A DNA stretch of 64,000 nt from Archangium sp. (lineage in GTDB: Bacteria; Myxococcota; Myxococcia; Myxococcales; Myxococcaceae). Positions 19,187 to 27,754 of the stretch are shown here, piece by piece (within the stretch, counting starts at the first letter, position 1; every line of letters begins with the position of its first letter). Location: positions 12,976 through 76,975 of the forward strand of contig JANLPS010000358.1 in assembly GCA_031367385.1 (NCBI GenBank), given 5' to 3'. Below the pieces are notes generated by a model. The model worked only from the letters and a program-made list of their open reading frames with translations. It had not been told where the DNA came from and ran no database searches. Made by a program: the position numbers and the translations under genes.

Positions 19187-19547
19187 TCATCCACAACTGC
19201 AAACAATTCGGTACCCGCACGCGGCGAACGCCGCACCGTTGCCCAGCCGAGCGCGAGAATGCTCCGGAGCGAACACGATACAGCCTGACTGACCGTGCTG
19301 ATCTTCCAGCTCAAACTCGCAACCGCCCTCGGCCGCCGTCCGAATCACCCCTTCACAGTGGCCGCCGTCCCGTTCAACGATTGCGAACTGGCGAGCCGTT
19401 CAGCGGCAGCAGCAACGCCTTTGGCGCCTCGGGTTCGACAAGTCGCTCATCACGTTGAGCCCCTGTCAGAGCGACGATTTGCGAATTGGCGCATGAAACC
19501 AAGACAAAGCAAGCCAACATCCAAGTCATATCGCGGTGCGTGTTCAT
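19187..19547 (-). pseudogene. Small Cys-rich lipoprotein gene with an apparent frameshift near 19390
   Basis: ATG 19547 after GAGG encodes the signal MNTHRDMTWMLACFVLVSC and stops at 19374. Another frame continues QFAIVERDGGHCEG...ACGYRIVCSCG* to 19187. Confidence 0.4.
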
Positions 19548-19697
19548 GCAGGCTTCCTCGCGAAAGTGAACGCTTGGCGCGCGGCGACATACCGGCCGGG
19601 GCAGGCCCCAATGAGCTATTGGCTGTGCTGTAAGCTTCTGTACGAGAGACCCCCTCATCAACTCACGGGGCCAGGAGTACCTTTGCAAACCCCGCCA

Positions 19698-22600
19698 ATG
19701 ATCACCCTTCGAACCGCCATGGCGATGATCTTTCTCGGGGCATGCGCTCGCACTGATCACCCAGCGGAGGATCAGCCGGTCGCAGCCAAGGTCGACTCGC
19801 TTCGTCGCATTCACGCATCGCTTCGGACCGAACGTGAACGCCCTCTGGTCACCAACGGCTCAATCGAGCACACCATCGCCGAGGGCTTCACCGGTCCTTC
19901 CAGTCACTCGTACGTGCTGGTCACCGACGCGGGAGAGCGCCTCGAGTTGCACCCCACCACCGAGCTGCCGACCCTCCTCACCGGTACCCACGTTCGGCTC
20001 AACGGCGTTCGTCTCGGCGACCACCTCGTCGTGCGCCAGCTCGACGCGATGACCTCGCCCGCCCCGCCGCCACCTCCCGCGCCAACGGTTCGAACGCTCG
20101 CGGTCGTGCTCTACCACTATCAAACGCAAACCCCGCCGTGGACGGTGGCCTTCGCGCGCGGCACCGCCTTCACCGACGCGTTCAGCATTCGCAACTACTA
20201 CCAAGCCGTCTCCTTCGGTCAGATCACCCTCGAGGGTCAGGTGAATGGCGCGAACGGTGACGTGTACGGCTGGTACGTGTTGCCGGGCCCTCCACCCGTC
20301 TGCGGAGAGATCGGCTCATCGGCGGCCGCCACGCTCGCTGCAGCCGACGGGTTCAACGAAGCCAATTACCAGCATGTCGTCTACGCCTTCGCGGGCACCA
20401 GCTGCGGGTACGTCGGCAAGGCCGATGTCGGCGGTCGGCGCGTCTGGTTCAACGATGGCGCATTCAACATGGGCGCGGTGGCCCATGAGATCGGCCACAA
20501 CCTGGGCCTCGCCCACGCAGGCAGCTTGCGGTGCACCACCGCCGGCGTCCCCGTCGCGTTTGGCTTGTCGTGCGTGAACAACGAATACGGAGACCCCTTC
20601 GACATCATGGGCGATGCCTGGAGTCACCGGCAGCTCAAACCCGAAAACAGAAATCAGCTCGGGTGGTTGACCGGCGCGGGCATTCAGCAGGTCACCCTCG
20701 ATGGCACCTTCGTTCTCGCGCCGTTGGAGTCGACGCCGGCCGGCGTTCACATGCTGCGAATCGGAGAGGTCGGTACCCCCGCCTTCAACGTCGAGTTTCG
20801 CCAGCCAACCGGCGTGTTCGATGACTTCACCGCGGCCGACCCCACGGTGAATGGAGTCATCATTCGCACCACGGGCGTGCTCGACATGACGCCCAGCACG
20901 CCCAGCTTTCTCGATGCTGCGTTGGCGGTGGGCAAGACGTTCACCGACCCACTCACCGGCCTGTCGATCACCACCAAGAGCGTCGCCGCCACCGGGGCCG
21001 AAGTCACCGTGGCCTTCGGGCCGTGCGTGCGCCGCGCGCCTTCGATGACGACTGGCACGACCTTTCAAACGACTCCAGCGGGAGGTCAGACGCTCACCTA
21101 CTCCGTGACCCTCACCAATCAGGACTACACCAAGTGCGGAGCCTCGACGTTCACCGTGACCGCCACCCTGCCGGGAGCGGGGTGGGTTCAAGCGCCAGCC
21201 GCGGCCGCGTCAATCGAGCCCGGCCAGTCACATACGTTTGATCTCGCGATCACCGGGCCAGTCGGTGCGCCCGAGGCGACCTACACGGTCGATGAGACGT
21301 TCACCAACGCCACCAGCAGCCTCAGCAACACGCTCACGCTCGAGTACGAAATCAAAACACCCGACACGATGCCGCCGGCGGTGGTGAACATCACCGCTCC
21401 CCTCGAGGGCACCATCTTCAGCGCCGCGCAATTGGTGTGGATCACCGTCGACACATCGCCCGACGTCGACCACGTCGACTTCTTCGACGGAGCGTTCGGC
21501 ATGGGGAGCTCGCGCTCCGCGCCTTTTCAGAAAATGTGGCCCGTCGACACGTACAACAATGGGCCGCACACACTCACCGCCAAGGGCTTCGACGCAGCGG
21601 GCAACTTTCTCGCGTCGACCGTGCACATCATCGTTCGCATTGGCGTCGACTTGGTGCTCGCGGCCCTCGCGACGAACGAGACCACCGTGACGCCCGGTGG
21701 CGTCATCACCGCGACCGCCAGCATCAAGAACCAGGGCATCACCGAATCGGGGGCTTGGGAAATGCGCTTCGTGCTCTCGACCGATGCGGTGTTCGGTGGG
21801 GCCGACGACATCGCCTTCGTCACAGCGCCAGTCGTCGATTCAGTTGATGCGGGAGTGACCTTCACCACCGACACAGCGCTCACCGTGCCCGCCGCAACGC
21901 CCTTCGGCGCCTACTACCTCTGCGCGGCCGCCGACAGCGCGGCGACCGTCGTCGAGACCGATGAGACCAACAACACCTCGTGCACAGCGTTCAAGGTGCA
22001 AGTGGTCTCGGGAATACCGGTGGTGGTGACCCCGGCTCACGCCACGCCGAACCCGGTGGTCGGCGTGAGCACCTCCCTCTCCACGCTCGCGAGTGACGAC
22101 CAGGGTGAGGCCGCGCTCACCTACACCTGGTCGGGCCCCGCGGGAGTCTCCTTCGCGCCGAACGGCACCAATGCCGCGTCGAACAGCGTGGCCACCTTCA
22201 CCCACGCGGGCGACTTCACGGTGCTGGTGACCATCACCGATCGCGCCAACAATCAGGTCGTCAGCTCGACCCAAATCACCGTCACAGCGACGCCGACCGC
22301 GCTCTCGGTGAGCCCCACCGTGGCTACGGTCGAGAGCGCCAACCGCCAGCAGTTCACCGCGGTCGTGACTGATCAATTTGGCGCCGCGCTCCCCGCGCAA
22401 CCCACGCTCACCTGGGTCATCAGTGGCGGCGGAGTGCTCGATGCGCAAGGCCTGTTCACCGCGGGCCCGGTCGCAGGAGGCCCCTTCGTGCTGACCGTCT
22501 CCTCGGGGTCGCTGAGCGCGACGGCGCAAGTCAGCGTATCGAGCGAACCCGATACCGCCGCGCCGACGGTGGCGATTACCGAGCCTGCCGCCGACACCCG

Positions 22601-23258
22601 ACTGGTGGGCTCGACTCGCGTGCTGGCGGTCGCGACCGACGACTTCGCCGTGGTGAAGGTGCAGCTCTTCGTCGATTCGACGCAGCTCGCCGAGCTGTCG
22701 GTGCCGCCCTTCGCCGTGATGCTCGACCCATCGTCACTGACCGCTGGTGACCACCTGCTCACCGCGAAGGCCTTCGACGCGGCAGGGCATTCCACGCTGA
22801 GCGCGCCCGTCAAAGTGGTGGTCGGCCCGGCGGGCGGCCTTGATCAATCGCCGCCGTCGGTGCGCATCACCGCTCCCGCCCAGAATGAATCGACTCGCCT
22901 CGCGCTCGATGTCAGCGCCACCGCGACTGACGACGTTGGCGTGACCCGCGTCGAATTCGAGCTCGACGGCACCCTCGCCGCCACCGTCGACGCAGCGCCG
23001 TTTGCGGCTCGTCTCACGGTCTCCGCCGGCCCGCACACCCTCGTCGCCACCGCTTGGGACGCAGTGGGGCACCGCACCCGATCGGCGACAGTCGCCTTTC
23101 GCGCTGAAGATGCGACGGTTTTCGACGGTGGCGTGACCGCGTCTCCGACTCCAGCGGGTGGCGTGAAAGGCACCTGTGGGTGCGACGCCAGCGGAGGATC
23201 GCTCCTCGTCGGCCTATTGGCCCTGCTCAGGAGGCGGCCCAGAGCAAAGGGAGACTGA
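19698..23258 (+). CDS. M11/gametolysin-like zinc metalloprotease with NEW3-like, Ig-like, CARDB-like and PKD-like domains and MYXO-CTERM
   Basis: HEIGHNLGLAH, EYGDPFDIMG, NYY..VSFGQ; D..PP.V.ITAP Ig repeats; ETDETNN; C-terminal GCGC.ASGG-hydrophobic-RRR. Confidence 0.85.
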   Translation: MITLRTAMAMIFLGACARTDHPAEDQPVAAKVDSLRRIHASLRTERERPLVTNGSIEHTIAEGFTGPSSHSYVLVTDAGERLELHPTTELPTLLTGTHVRLNGVRLGDHLVVRQLDAMTSPAPPPPPAPTVRTLAVVLYHYQTQTPPWTVAFARGTAFTDAFSIRNYYQAVSFGQITLEGQVNGANGDVYGWYVLPGPPPVCGEIGSSAAATLAAADGFNEANYQHVVYAFAGTSCGYVGKADVGGRRVWFNDGAFNMGAVAHEIGHNLGLAHAGSLRCTTAGVPVAFGLSCVNNEYGDPFDIMGDAWSHRQLKPENRNQLGWLTGAGIQQVTLDGTFVLAPLESTPAGVHMLRIGEVGTPAFNVEFRQPTGVFDDFTAADPTVNGVIIRTTGVLDMTPSTPSFLDAALAVGKTFTDPLTGLSITTKSVAATGAEVTVAFGPCVRRAPSMTTGTTFQTTPAGGQTLTYSVTLTNQDYTKCGASTFTVTATLPGAGWVQAPAAAASIEPGQSHTFDLAITGPVGAPEATYTVDETFTNATSSLSNTLTLEYEIKTPDTMPPAVVNITAPLEGTIFSAAQLVWITVDTSPDVDHVDFFDGAFGMGSSRSAPFQKMWPVDTYNNGPHTLTAKGFDAAGNFLASTVHIIVRIGVDLVLAALATNETTVTPGGVITATASIKNQGITESGAWEMRFVLSTDAVFGGADDIAFVTAPVVDSVDAGVTFTTDTALTVPAATPFGAYYLCAAADSAATVVETDETNNTSCTAFKVQVVSGIPVVVTPAHATPNPVVGVSTSLSTLASDDQGEAALTYTWSGPAGVSFAPNGTNAASNSVATFTHAGDFTVLVTITDRANNQVVSSTQITVTATPTALSVSPTVATVESANRQQFTAVVTDQFGAALPAQPTLTWVISGGGVLDAQGLFTAGPVAGGPFVLTVSSGSLSATAQVSVSSEPDTAAPTVAITEPAADTRLVGSTRVLAVATDDFAVVKVQLFVDSTQLAELSVPPFAVMLDPSSLTAGDHLLTAKAFDAAGHSTLSAPVKVVVGPAGGLDQSPPSVRITAPAQNESTRLALDVSATATDDVGVTRVEFELDGTLAATVDAAPFAARLTVSAGPHTLVATAWDAVGHRTRSATVAFRAEDATVFDGGVTASPTPAGGVKGTCGCDASGGSLLVGLLALLRRRPRAKGD

Positions 23259-23426
23259 TTCAATGCCAACGATTCTCGAGACGAAACAGTCGCGGTCGAG
23301 CGAAGCGCTTGCCGTGCTCAAGCAGTGACTCGCCGGCACCGGGGTTTTCGATGGTTGCCGCCTTCAAAGTGCGCCTAAGTCAGCCCACGCCGCCGCGCAC
23401 GTCAGTCTTTGGAGCCGCCCTCCCTC

Positions 23427-26264
23427 ATGAAGAAATCGAAAAAATCAGCCACCGCGCAGTCGGGTGACGGCCTCGCCACGCTGGTCGAACGCGACCTGAC
23501 CGCCCTCGCCACTTCGGGCACGCTGCCCATCGGCCACGGCCTCGAACAAGCGGCCGCCGAGCTGGTCACCCTGCTCACCCGCGGGGGCAAGTCGCCGCTG
23601 CTGGCCGGAGACCAGGGCGTCGGCAAGAGCGCCATCGTTCAAGAGGTCGCGCGACGCATCGCGCAGGGCAACGTGCCCGAGGGGCTCAAGGGCGCCCGCG
23701 TGCTCGAGCTCACCGCCGCTGGCATCTTCGCCCGAACCAACACGCCCAAAGGCGCCGCCGAGCTGTTCGAGGAGCTGCTCGAGACCCTGGGCGCCGTGCC
23801 CGGCACGCTGGTCTTCATGCGCGATGTTGGCCTGGTCACCGGCAGCTCACTGGTGCCGGTCTTGATTCGCGCGCTCCGCTCGGCCCGCCTGCGCTTCATC
23901 TTCGAGAGCGACCTGCGCCGTGGCAACGAGCTGCTGCGCAGTGACGAGACGCTCGCTGAGAAGCTGCACCTGGTGGTCGTCAACGAGCCGACCATCGAGC
24001 GCGCACGGTGGATTGTCGGCCGCGCCGCCGAAGACCTGGAGCTCGAAGCCGGGTTGCCCATCGACCCCTCGGCCTGCGACCTGGCCCTGCGGCTCTCGGT
24101 GAAGTTCTTGCTCGCCCAGCGGCTGCCGCGAAAGGCCCTCGAGCTGTTGCGCGAAACCGTCGCCGAGGCCTCGGGCGCCTCGAGAGACCGCGTCACCGGT
24201 GAAGACGTGCTCGCCCGCTTCTGCGCCGCCACCCGCCTGCCCCGCTTCATGGCCGACGACGCCTTGCCGCTCGACTTCGATGAGGTCGCACGCTTCTTCG
24301 GCAGCCGCCTGCTGGGCCAGACCGACGCGGTTCAGGCGGTGTTGCGCTCGGTCGCGCTGCTCAAGGCCGGCCTCAACAACCCGCGACGGCCGCTGGGTGT
24401 GTTTCTCTTCGCGGGGCCCACCGGCGTCGGCAAGACCCACCTGGCCAAGCTGCTCGCGGAGTACCTGTTCGGCTCGCATGACCGGTTGGTGCGGCTCAAC
24501 ATGGCCGACTACCCCGACTTCGGCGATGAGCAGGTGCTCTTCGGCAACCCGTGGGCCCAGGGCGCCGACGGCAAGCGCGGCGAGCTCACCCGGCTGCTCG
24601 ATTCGCGGGTCTTCACCGTGTTGCTGCTCGACGAGTTCGAGAAGGCGCACGCCAAGTGCCACGACCGGTTTCTGCAGCTCTTCGACGAAGGGCAGTTCAT
24701 CAACGCCGCCGGTGAGACGGTGCCGTGCAACAACACGCTCATCGTCTGCACCTCGAACGTAGGGGCCGAGGTGTACCGCGAGGGCTCGATTGGTTTCGCC
24801 GCCAGCCGCACCGACGACGAGCTGCTCGCCGAGGTCGACCGCCGCATCGCGACCACCTTCAGGCCTGAATTTCTCAATCGTTTCGATGCGATGTGCCACT
24901 TTCGCCCGCTGGGCAGGGTCGAGATTCGCCGCATCGCGCAGCGCGAGGTGGGCCGGGTGCTCGAGCGAGAAGGCATTCGGGCGCGGCAGCTCGATGTCGA
25001 AATCGCTCCCGAGGTGGTCGAGCTGTTGGTCGAGCGCGGGTACTCGCCGACGCATGGCGCGCGGTACCTGCAACGTGAAATCGAGAAAACCCTCACCGCG
25101 GCATTGGCGGTCGAGATTGCGCGGCAGCCGCTGCCCGCGGGCACTCCGGTGAAGGTGGTGGCGCACAAGGGCGGCGTGCATGCGATTGCCGAGCCCAAGG
25201 TACGCAGGGTGCGCGAGGCCACGGCGCAGGCGCAGCTGCCGAGCGGAGGCGCTCAAGTTCAACGGCGCAAGCTCGACGCGCGCTCGCTGCTGGCCGAGGC
25301 AGAGGCGTTGATTGGCCGGGCCGCCGGAGTCTCATCGGCCACCAAACGCACCGAGCTCGAAGCGCGACGCCGAGAGCTGCTCGCCGCCTCGCAGGCCCCC
25401 GGCTTTTGGGACGACGCGGAGCGTGCGGCGTCGGTCTTGCGCGCCTTTCGAACCGCCGAGGTGCAGCTCGCCGAGCTCGATCGACTGCGCGAGCTGTGCC
25501 AGGTGGCGCGGCGGCGAGCACGTGAAGCGAAGGGCGACATGCAGCTGGCCGCAGCGGTGCGGGCGGTTGAAGAGGCCGCGCGCGAAGTGCAGCTGGCCGA
25601 GGCCCGGGTGGCGTCGGGCACGGCGGGCACCGTCGATGACGCGTGGCTCGACGTCTCGGCCGCCCTCGAAGGAGAAGCGGGCGAAGCGTGGGTGCGCGAG
25701 CTGGTCTCGATGTACCTGGGCTGGGCCGAGCGGCGTGGGTACGAGGCGAAGGTGGTGGCTGAATCAGAGACGCCGCGCAGGGCGGTGCTGCACCTGCATG
25801 GGCCTGGCGTGTTCGGGTTTCTCTCGGGTGAGCGCGGGTTGCACCGGCGCATCGACGATGGCTCGCGGCAGGCGGCCTACGTGAGGTTGTCGAAGCCGTC
25901 GAACGCACCGATTGAGTTGCCCGAGACGCTCGAGGTGGTCGGGCGCGAAGTCAAGCGGCGCGCCGGGCGGTTCGTCGAGCGGGTGGCGAGTGAGGCACAG
26001 GCCCGAGATGAGCGCACGGGCCGCGAGCTGCAGCTGTCGGGCGCGGGGTCGGTGACGGAGTTGCGCGCGTTGACTGCGGTGGTGCTCGAGCTGCAGGGTG
26101 AAGGCGGGCTCGAGGTGCGGCGGTACTTCGTGGGGCGCAGCGCGAGAGTCGAAGACCCGAGAACCGGCGAGGCGACCCCGCGGGTCAAAGACGTGCTGCG
26201 AGGCGAAATCGACCTGTTCATCGCCGGGTGGATTACGCGGCCCCCCGACACGCTTCAGGCATGA
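23427..26264 (+). CDS. ClpA/B-type double AAA+ ATPase fused to a release-factor-2-like (PCRF) module lacking GGQ
   Basis: GDQGVGKS; LP.KA.ELL; LLGQTDAV; RPLGVFLFAGPTGVGKT; LLLDEFEKAH; FRPEFLNRFD; GAR.LQR.IE. C-terminus PGFWDD, MYLGWAERRG, G.GVFGFLSGERGLHR, VRRY..V.DPRTG..V.DVL.GEIDLFI. Confidence 0.85.
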   Translation: MKKSKKSATAQSGDGLATLVERDLTALATSGTLPIGHGLEQAAAELVTLLTRGGKSPLLAGDQGVGKSAIVQEVARRIAQGNVPEGLKGARVLELTAAGIFARTNTPKGAAELFEELLETLGAVPGTLVFMRDVGLVTGSSLVPVLIRALRSARLRFIFESDLRRGNELLRSDETLAEKLHLVVVNEPTIERARWIVGRAAEDLELEAGLPIDPSACDLALRLSVKFLLAQRLPRKALELLRETVAEASGASRDRVTGEDVLARFCAATRLPRFMADDALPLDFDEVARFFGSRLLGQTDAVQAVLRSVALLKAGLNNPRRPLGVFLFAGPTGVGKTHLAKLLAEYLFGSHDRLVRLNMADYPDFGDEQVLFGNPWAQGADGKRGELTRLLDSRVFTVLLLDEFEKAHAKCHDRFLQLFDEGQFINAAGETVPCNNTLIVCTSNVGAEVYREGSIGFAASRTDDELLAEVDRRIATTFRPEFLNRFDAMCHFRPLGRVEIRRIAQREVGRVLEREGIRARQLDVEIAPEVVELLVERGYSPTHGARYLQREIEKTLTAALAVEIARQPLPAGTPVKVVAHKGGVHAIAEPKVRRVREATAQAQLPSGGAQVQRRKLDARSLLAEAEALIGRAAGVSSATKRTELEARRRELLAASQAPGFWDDAERAASVLRAFRTAEVQLAELDRLRELCQVARRRAREAKGDMQLAAAVRAVEEAAREVQLAEARVASGTAGTVDDAWLDVSAALEGEAGEAWVRELVSMYLGWAERRGYEAKVVAESETPRRAVLHLHGPGVFGFLSGERGLHRRIDDGSRQAAYVRLSKPSNAPIELPETLEVVGREVKRRAGRFVERVASEAQARDERTGRELQLSGAGSVTELRALTAVVLELQGEGGLEVRRYFVGRSARVEDPRTGEATPRVKDVLRGEIDLFIAGWITRPPDTLQA

Positions 26265-26266
26265 CC

Positions 26267-26296
26267 CCGTTCGTCGTGAGCGAAGTCGAAGGACCC
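26267..26296 (+). repeat. REP-like palindromic element (CCGTTCGTCGTGAGCGAAGTCGAAGGACCC)
   Basis: 29 of 30 bases match the copy at 57202-57231. Confidence 0.85.
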
Positions 26297-26314
26297 CCGC
26301 TCACGCTTCCAACA

Positions 26315-26536
26315 GCTCAACTCGCGCGCCCCTGGGAGCAGGAACACATTCTGCTGCACCTCGGCGAAGTACCGCGCGTGCAAGCGGCAAAAACTGATCA
26401 GACCCCTTGCCGATGTGCCGGTGAATCGCCGATCGCGGCACGATCACATCGAGCGCACGCAGCGCCCTCGCCCACGCGTCGACGGGCAGAGAGTTGGGTC
26501 GACCAACCTGCCATCGATGTCGAGCAAGACGAGCAT
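26315..26536 (-). pseudogene. HAD-family hydrolase remnant (frameshifted, 3'-truncated)
   Basis: Three successive frames give MLVLLDIDGRLVD / VDAWARALRALDVIVPRSAIHRHIGKGSDQFLP / HARYFAEVQQNVFLLPGAREL, matching HAD motif I, the cap region and the PG..ELL motif. Confidence 0.75.
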
Positions 26537-26578
26537 CGCGCTTCTACCCCGGCGGCCAACCCGCTATTCCTCCTCCGC

Positions 26579-27085
26579 ATGCCGACTCCGACCATCGTTC
26601 ACACACTCGACGTTCAAGACCCGGACAACTCGACCTACCCGGGTCAAACCGAGCTGCTCTCGATTGGAGCGCCCTTCGCGCAGCTGATGGGCCTGCACCA
26701 CTTGGCGGTGCACCACGAGCTGCTGCCTCCGGGCCGGCGCACCAGCTGCGCGCACGCGCACGAATCAGAAGACGAGTTCGTCTACGTCATCGAGGGCACG
26801 CCCGACTTGTTTCTCGACGGAGTGCTCCACCGGCTCAAGCCCGGCTCGGCGGCCGGGTTTCCCGCCGGCACGGGGCACTCACACACGATGATCAACAACA
26901 CCACCGAGCCGGTGCGCCTGCTGGTCGTCGGAGAACCTGCCCGGGTGCGCGCCCGTATTCACTACCCGCTCGACCCAATGCGAAACGAAGCGGCCACCAA
27001 GAACAACCGCCACTGGCACGATGCGCCCGTGCTGCCCATGGGGCCCCACGATGGCCTGCCCGACGCGCTGCGAAAGAAGCCGTGA
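26579..27085 (+). CDS. Cupin domain protein
   Basis: LPPGRRTS.AHAHESEDEFVYVIEG...L.PG...GFPAGTG.SH.MIN...LLVVG...HYP. Confidence 0.88.
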   Translation: MPTPTIVHTLDVQDPDNSTYPGQTELLSIGAPFAQLMGLHHLAVHHELLPPGRRTSCAHAHESEDEFVYVIEGTPDLFLDGVLHRLKPGSAAGFPAGTGHSHTMINNTTEPVRLLVVGEPARVRARIHYPLDPMRNEAATKNNRHWHDAPVLPMGPHDGLPDALRKKP

Positions 27086-27292: not shown

Positions 27293-27754
27293 TTAGAACG
27301 GCGCGTCTTCATCGCCCGGAGGCGGAATCTGCGACATGTCGTGACCCCCGCTCCCACCGCCACCGCCTTGACGCGCAATCTCGGCCTCGATGGCCGCCAG
27401 CAACACGCGCTCTTTGTCGTGAAACCGGGCCTTGGTCGGGTCTGAGAGCGAGCGGCGCGAGCCATTCGCGTAGAAATCGAGGTCTTGCATCGTGGCGCCC
27501 GAAATCGGCATGCCCTTCGAGCGGCCGTAGGGAGGAAACACCATTCCACCATCTCCGCCGCCGCCGCCGCTGGGCACCGAGCGGAGCCCGGGGCCTCGTG
27601 ACGCCGCGCTCGCGACAGGCTGCGAGCCGATGCTGAGCTCTCCCAGCTTCAGGCTGAAGCCCTCGCCGGTTTTGGTGGCCGTGCCGACCCGAACCTCTTC
27701 GACCGACCCGTCTTGGCGCTGCACGCTGACTGTGACTGCGTAGGTTTCGCTCAT
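27293..27754 (-). CDS. Conserved hypothetical protein with SSB-like acidic C-terminal tip (PPPGDEDAPF)
   Basis: 153-aa ORF with typical codon use: beta-rich N-domain, Gly linker, FPPYGRSKG helical domain, acidic tail ending in PF. Confidence 0.75.
   Translation of the reverse strand: MSETYAVTVSVQRQDGSVEEVRVGTATKTGEGFSLKLGELSIGSQPVASAASRGPGLRSVPSGGGGGDGGMVFPPYGRSKGMPISGATMQDLDFYANGSRRSLSDPTKARFHDKERVLLAAIEAEIARQGGGGGSGGHDMSQIPPPGDEDAPF

Follow-up and report, generated by a model that had tools for sequence, protein, structure and literature searches.

Stalled bacterial ribosomes are known to be rescued by tmRNA, by ArfA, ArfB or BrfA, by PrfH or by Ala-tailing, with proteases acting after release. 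The gene described here, located at 23427..26264 on the + strand of a 64,000-nucleotide stretch of an Archangium sp. contig (JANLPS010000358.1; the whole stretch is referred to as the window), encodes a protein of 945 amino acids (aa) in a single open frame, in which a Clp-type double AAA+ ATPase is followed by a pseudo-RF2 module. Its closest described relatives are the class I Clp/Hsp100 ATPases ClpA and ClpC, which act with ClpP, and release factor (RF) 2 (PrfB; TIGR00020; Pfam PCRF and RF-1). The chloroplast protein PrfB3 is likewise an RF2 paralogue devoid of SPF and GGQ, but it is a stand-alone plant protein without an ATPase and binds the petB 3′ untranslated region (PMC5897788, accessible part); PrfB3 and the fusion module probably arose independently. 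A functional analogy is offered by eukaryotic Vms1-Cdc48 and Dom34 (PMC6514570): in ribosome rescue, an RF-like domain works there with an AAA+ ATPase, or the RF paralogue is non-catalytic, albeit with an unrelated aeRF1 fold, on separate polypeptides and, for Vms1, with a catalytic Gln. The same survey of release-factor paralogues gives RF1, RF2, ArfB and PrfH as the bacterial versions and, in its accessible part, does not list a fusion of the present kind (PMC6514570). The term ‘clp’ has 0 occurrences in its main text, supplement aside, and the available portion of PMC10272220 contains neither ‘clp’ nor ‘release factor’. Likewise, no published description of a Clp–release-factor fusion, or of MXAN_1484, its probable orthologue in Myxococcus xanthus DK1622, was found among listings and abstract openings, subscription literature mostly aside. 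The gene represents a conserved Clp subfamily, apparently undescribed so far, whose pseudo-RF2 module does not make it a release factor.

The initial annotation had read the product as a Clp/RF2 fusion. This reading is confirmed at the level of sequence, where Pfam matches to AAA_2 (residues 321-488), ClpB_D2-small (495-577) and PCRF (645-807), together with an RF2 profile alignment, describe a ClpA-like double AAA+ ATPase joined to what is predicted to be a whole RF2 fold. The PCRF score was 58.3 bits against a Pfam cut-off of 24, and this match and the four-domain RF fold of the C-terminal part gave the outcome on which the fusion proposal had been staked beforehand. The fourth domain proposed, Pfam RF-1, gave no match in the fusion protein. 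Residues 23-578 are colinear with E. coli ClpA 175-734 in a single uninterrupted alignment, and the protein therefore has neither an N-domain nor an M-domain; a linker of ~30 residues leads to the RF arm. The homologues, of ~925-950 aa, possess an identical domain set.

For the C-terminal module, RF2 scores higher than RF1 (TIGR00020 prfB 76 bits, as compared to 20-23 for prfA). Solved RF2 chains in the PDB match both ends of the tail (E 2e-15), and a profile-profile comparison with 64 RF2 sequences returned a probability of 100 over 320 columns (64 frames carrying GGQ and SPF were recovered from loci L013-L080 and this genome). Alignment and predicted model agree that all four RF2 domains are kept in order, and the overlay placed the model nearest to the closed E. 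coli RF2 structure 1gqe. Domain 1, a helical coiled coil with PGFWDD, occupies 25278..25613 (this and all following gene features on the + strand); the order of RF elements had been given correctly, but the RF start had been set at ~25345 and helix 1 of the model begins slightly earlier, near 25278. The charge of this domain is ~+1 as compared to ~-15 in RF2, and the module as a whole is near-neutral and, unlike RF2, fused to an ATPase. In domain 2 (25632..25892) the alpha5-tip GAGGT, the GEEAG loop, SPF and RHTSF are lost or shortened; the reported loss of the SPF loop is borne out by its shortening and by the occurrence of SPF/SPY in 0/113 modules. Domain 3 (25929..26093), comprising three strands and a helix, is retained according to alignment and model. 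The GGQ loop had been described as absent; however, the gapless alignment with RF2 runs through it, and the loop is present, rich in Lys/Arg, with AGR (residues 846-848; 25962..25970) in place of GGQ. Its middle glycine (G847) is kept in 110/113 homologues, while GGQ is found at the site in 0/113. The link formed by alpha7 and the switch loop (26094..26114) is shortened by ~22 residues, with RF2 positions 287-308 unaligned and a segment of 29 residues as compared to 51 in RF2. Domain 4 (26112..26237; RRY..EDPRTG..KDVLRGEIDLFI) has a conservation of 0.85, equal to that of the second ATPase ring, and has gained conserved Arg/Lys residues. As shown by alignment and model, such a tail should be able neither to read a stop codon nor to hydrolyse peptidyl-tRNA.

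Turning to the motor, AAA+ ring 1 (D1; residues 22-280, 23490..24266, from alignment to ClpA/ClpB D1) has no N-domain before it, and in 110/113 homologues the D1 start motif has 10-29 residues in front of it. The Walker A motif GDQGVGKS (23607..23630) is kept in 73/73 close and 49/58 distant homologues. Conversely, Walker B is degenerate (LVFMRD, 23808..23825, RD for DE); FMRD aligns with FIDE of E. coli ClpA, and DE occurs in 0/113 close and 1/58 distant homologues. Ring 1 is thus probably hydrolysis-dead, and its ratio of non-synonymous to synonymous substitution rates (dN/dS) is 0.03-0.31 (9 pairs). Ring 2 with its small domain (D2; residues 281-583, 24267..25175, defined by AAA_2, ClpB_D2-small and motif counts) carries Walker A GPTGVGKT (24414..24437) and, around Walker B LLLDE (24621..24635), the motif LLDEFEK, both in 113/113 homologues, and the Arg-finger and sensor-2 motifs are also kept. 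These results agree with the initial annotation on the missing N-domain, the half-degenerate ring 1 and the intact ring 2. The D2 pore loop FGNPW (24540..24554) replaces the GYVG-type loop; its Trp376 is invariant in 113/113 close homologues (FGxxW) and variable in distant ones, and is the probable gripping aromatic. The IGF loop (24789..24797; [ILVMF]GF in 112/113 close and [ILVMF]G[FL] in 51/58 distant homologues) sits where ClpA, ClpC and ClpX dock on ClpP. This loop, which the initial annotation had overlooked, suggests degradation rather than remodelling alone. The motor is likely to be a ring-2-driven unfoldase feeding ClpP. Tandem AAA+ rings, the lack of an M-domain, an intact ring 2 and the IGF loop are common to the fusion and ClpA/ClpC. 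In contrast, the fusion lacks the N-domain, has a degenerate ring-1 Walker B and pore loop as well as the FGNPW loop in ring 2, carries the C-terminal RF module and falls in a separate clade. In a quick D2 tree (midpoint root; P0318 left out), 42 fusion and trio-type rows (the latter discussed below) split from 26 canonical Clp rows with a support of 100, and the scores for the curated families are far under the NCBIfam cut-offs (ClpA 266 of 993 bits, ClpB 282 of 1232).

The fusion is not confined to one assembly, as full-length homologues occur in many genomes, complete ones included. With the module as query, matches at E 8e-35 or better were obtained in 144/171 other same-family genomes (among them the unpublished G196, on which no claim depends alone), where the gene is apparently single-copy. 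The 27 genomes without a match are all <7 Mb, and every sampled genome of >=7 Mb has one. Outside the same family, 1/229 genomes reaches this E value. The named homologues belong to Myxococcus xanthus, Archangium, Stigmatella, Hyalangium and Pyxidicoccus, and their labels are generic. A scan of genome contigs yielded 13 fusion loci (L001-L012, L016), the other 67 being assigned to RF2 by size and identity. Following a wider profile search, a Clp ring 2 was found also in 99/149 new best representatives; many of the remaining ones look like fragments, and four are true RF2. Among long distant fusions (n = 74) GGQ or SPF is in place in none, and the switch segment is shorter in 73/74. The phylum was named for 3/10 clusters looked up (Hydrogenedentota, Gemmatimonadota and Planctomycetota), and the four-domain shape recurs in several phyla; in some members HEAT or TPR repeats precede the motor. 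A second phylum sample contained fusion-length frames in at least 8/121 genomes, with L214 and L216 counted by open-frame length alone. A metagenome scan of 80 loci returned mostly ordinary Clp genes, next to one weak trio-type module and four ordinary RF-sized genes, and the neighbourhoods of distant members are thin for this reason. In some distant fusions (P0291, P0317) domain 3 is apparently lost, and others display HEAT, TPR or beta-helix additions. The fusion at L010, a metagenome-assembled genome labelled Enterobacteriaceae, is nearest to that at L011, from a deltaproteobacterial one, and the former label may be wrong.

In combination, these features are best accounted for, at a probability of about 0.5, by a hexameric, ClpP-coupled unfoldase that a closed RF2 mimic, blind to codons, directs to stalled or translation-stressed ribosomes. 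With every ring-2 catalytic motif kept, the ring-1 Walker B lost and the IGF loop conserved, the protein would hexamerise, thread its substrate through ring 2 and pass it to ClpP, as in ClpA/ClpC. The tail, with its full RF2 fold predicted to be devoid of stop-codon reading and peptidyl-tRNA hydrolysis, would be locked by the short switch loop in the closed form, that of RF2 on first entry into the A site, allowing it to dock, irrespective of the codon, wherever the A site of a ribosome is vacant. Compact RFs have been reported to bind the A site whatever the state of the decoding centre; in compact RF1 the GGQ loop is turned towards the P-site tRNA, and release is slower when the switch loop is shortened (PMC6561943, accessible text). 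The basic loop standing in place of GGQ could correspondingly contact the P-site tRNA. In the weakest step of this scheme, docking would stand in for the missing N-domain as targeting device and bring the motor to its substrate, be it a nascent chain, a factor that is stuck or a ribosomal protein, for extraction and degradation. Given the shortened switch loop, which speaks against the extended form, the module is unlikely to dock at the peptidyl-transferase centre of 50S-peptidyl-tRNA. Generalising to a multi-phylum clade of ClpP-coupled AAA+ motors that bind stalled ribosomes at the empty A site, where they extract nascent chains or ribosomal components or degrade them, is a more tentative step, to which we give slightly less than an even chance. 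If this is correct, bacteria would have their own equivalent of Cdc48-type ribosome quality control, made of bacterial components and linked to the response to translation stress, and one polypeptide with a ClpP-type unfoldase and a release-factor body would couple proteolysis directly to the ribosome.

Indirect support for ribosome targeting comes from the whole RF2 fold, from a chloramphenicol-induced sister trio and from a tRNA-array/HNH cassette in relatives. M. xanthus DK1622 has eight ClpA/B/C genes in Table S1 of PMC11423568 (accessible part), among which MXAN_1484 (966 aa) is probably the orthologue, given its size, the exclusion of the others and the HNH gene MXAN_1486 two numbers away; the question is thus directly testable in a genetically tractable organism. 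The trio MXAN_4823-4825, for which that table and the available text of PMC6617876 give no label beyond ClpA/B family, shares the D2 clade of the fusion. It differs in forming a three-gene operon with N-terminal extensions and in the more decayed RF-like tails of its long members, whereas the Archangium gene stands alone and its RF2 fold is whole. Trios of matching size were found in 4/5 genomes searched, and none was found in this genome. In a ten-sequence test on three genomes the module profile matched 4/6 long members (E 5e-8 or better) and none of the short third members. Upon chloramphenicol treatment the trio rises by log2 values of 3.57, 2.67 and 2.61 and MXAN_1486 by 8.09, and tRNAs are strongly induced in the adapted culture (PMC6617876).

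The cassette was followed in a context sample of 60 hand-picked relatives from 20 genera, with tRNAs predicted by ARAGORN at default settings. In 29/60 an HNH gene precedes the fusion gene by <=2 kb on the same strand, and tRNA genes are located upstream in 28/60, with three or more in 21/60 and a maximum of 27. At five loci (L112, L240, L242, L245 and L246) a long array of 24-27 tRNA genes, with an HNH gene inside it, stops shortly before the fusion gene; in other genera 1-20 tRNAs are left, in a similar order. Long tRNA arrays with a linked HNH gene are described as spreading horizontally, and as being induced 100-1000-fold by ribosome-targeting antibiotics (PMC8421152, part available). In the present genome, tRNA clusters of 10, 5 and 4 genes (contigs C4, C63 and C232), possibly pieces of one long array, and two HNH genes (C525) are unlinked to the fusion in the assembly.

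Several observations weigh against ribosome docking. The decoding-site loops of RF2 are all deleted or changed, which fits a non-ribosomal role as well, and the surface lost is the one that would face the decoding centre. Among the strongly conserved, aligned RF2 positions 32/90 are kept, and many of these residues look structural. The closed-form model stands without an RF2 control model, and AlphaFold may prefer the crystal form. Moreover, the large ring would carry six RF arms, which would need to reach one A site via the ~30-residue linker. The cassette is found in 8/20 genera, none of them among those closest to this genome, and is not at the fusion gene here; the link may reflect a single insertion of a mobile array, and a conserved TAGAGT element occurs upstream of the fusion gene whether the array is present or not. 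The induced Clp genes named in the available part of PMC6617876 are the trio and MXAN_4832, with 0 mentions of MXAN_1484 in the text, expression tables aside, a silence that counts mildly against co-induction. Finally, PrfB3 illustrates that an RF2 without GGQ and SPF can act as an mRNA-binding protein (PMC5897788).

The PrfB3 precedent leads to an alternative, which we consider unlikely, in which the RF2 module is an off-ribosome RNA-binding domain and the Clp motor strips or degrades proteins on tRNA- or mRNA-protein complexes, for example in tRNA damage or repair. A charge shift of ~+20 relative to RF2 and new conserved Arg/Lys residues in domains 2-4 are in line with this, and the PrfB3 cluster is among the nearest ESM look-alikes of the module (score 0.89, a lead only). 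Still, the module is near neutral rather than strongly basic, and four domains including the long domain-1 arm would exceed the needs of RNA binding. The tRNA-array neighbourhood also points towards tRNA, but the array link is missing in 31/60 relatives. An RtcB RNA ligase gene (L012:1163-2233), which precedes a distant fusion gene by about 4 kb, points the same way, in one lineage only. A rather unlikely further explanation is a translation-independent adaptor or regulatory arm that binds a specific substrate or partner ATPase, its RF2 ancestry being incidental and perhaps due to the fusion of adjacent clp and prfB genes. The loss of all functional RF2 loops with retention of core-like residues, the greater decay of the module in the trio type and the lack of a family-wide conserved neighbourhood would suit an adaptor, yet the four-domain shape persists across several phyla and the sister trio is induced by chloramphenicol (PMC6617876). 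A clp gene ending 2 nt before an intact prfB exists in nature (L135), but its Clp is not grouped with the fusions. In that locus (L135:7419-10795) the Clp gene is an ordinary one, falling outside the fusion group of the quick D2 tree, and such an arrangement could yield a fusion. Even with a role away from the ribosome, the proteins would form a conserved Clp subfamily, as yet uncharacterised, whose targeting domain is a repurposed translation factor.

A defence or conflict effector that blocks the A site when triggered and shuts down translation, raised as an alternative in the initial annotation, is very unlikely. The patchy spread outside the family, the HEAT and TPR N-terminal variants and the capacity of a codon-blind A-site binder to inhibit translation could be read in its favour; however, the gene is present, apparently single-copy, in 144/171 same-family genomes, including all sampled ones of >=7 Mb, and the partial PADLOC matches are confined to the AAA stretches. 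Nor did plasmids (best 15 of 21 records) or phages (12/12 records) give a match above RF2-level identity among the matches listed. Prevotella Lak phages (H16-H21) contain unannotated, release-factor-sized matches of 23% identity, which are probably phage release factors. An assembly chimera or a decaying pseudogene tail, for which nothing was found in favour and whose probability is virtually nil, was ruled out by the widespread full-length homologues and by dN/dS values far below 1 (0.05-0.29 for the module in 9/9 pairs), from which the fusion gene is judged to be under purifying selection.

The ribosome-targeted unfoldase would operate beside ordinary release factors and Clp proteins. The same genome encodes separate RF1 and RF2, both with GGQ intact, three ordinary Clp ATPases judged from sequence to be ClpA, ClpB and ClpC-like, and ClpP, to which the fusion is thus an addition. 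A short RF-1-domain gene is also present and probably codes for ArfB. The survey of neighbourhoods that had been proposed bore out a widespread fusion but returned no common neighbourhood across the family. Within the window no Rfam match was obtained, and no sigma-70 promoter or terminator was found within 23200-23500. Upstream, 19536-23258 (+) encodes a secreted, metallopeptidase-like product of 1240 aa, in which CARDB, PKD and Ig-like domains are recognised. The cupin gene downstream (26228-27085, +), the ATG of which overlaps the fusion stop codon, is not a conserved neighbour, and a 153-aa open reading frame without a Pfam match at 27293-27754 (-) has a Gly-rich acidic tail. At L112 (4015-8696) and related loci, genes for RNase J, a DUF520 (YajQ-like) protein and a RimO/MiaB-type radical SAM protein are located downstream of the fusion.

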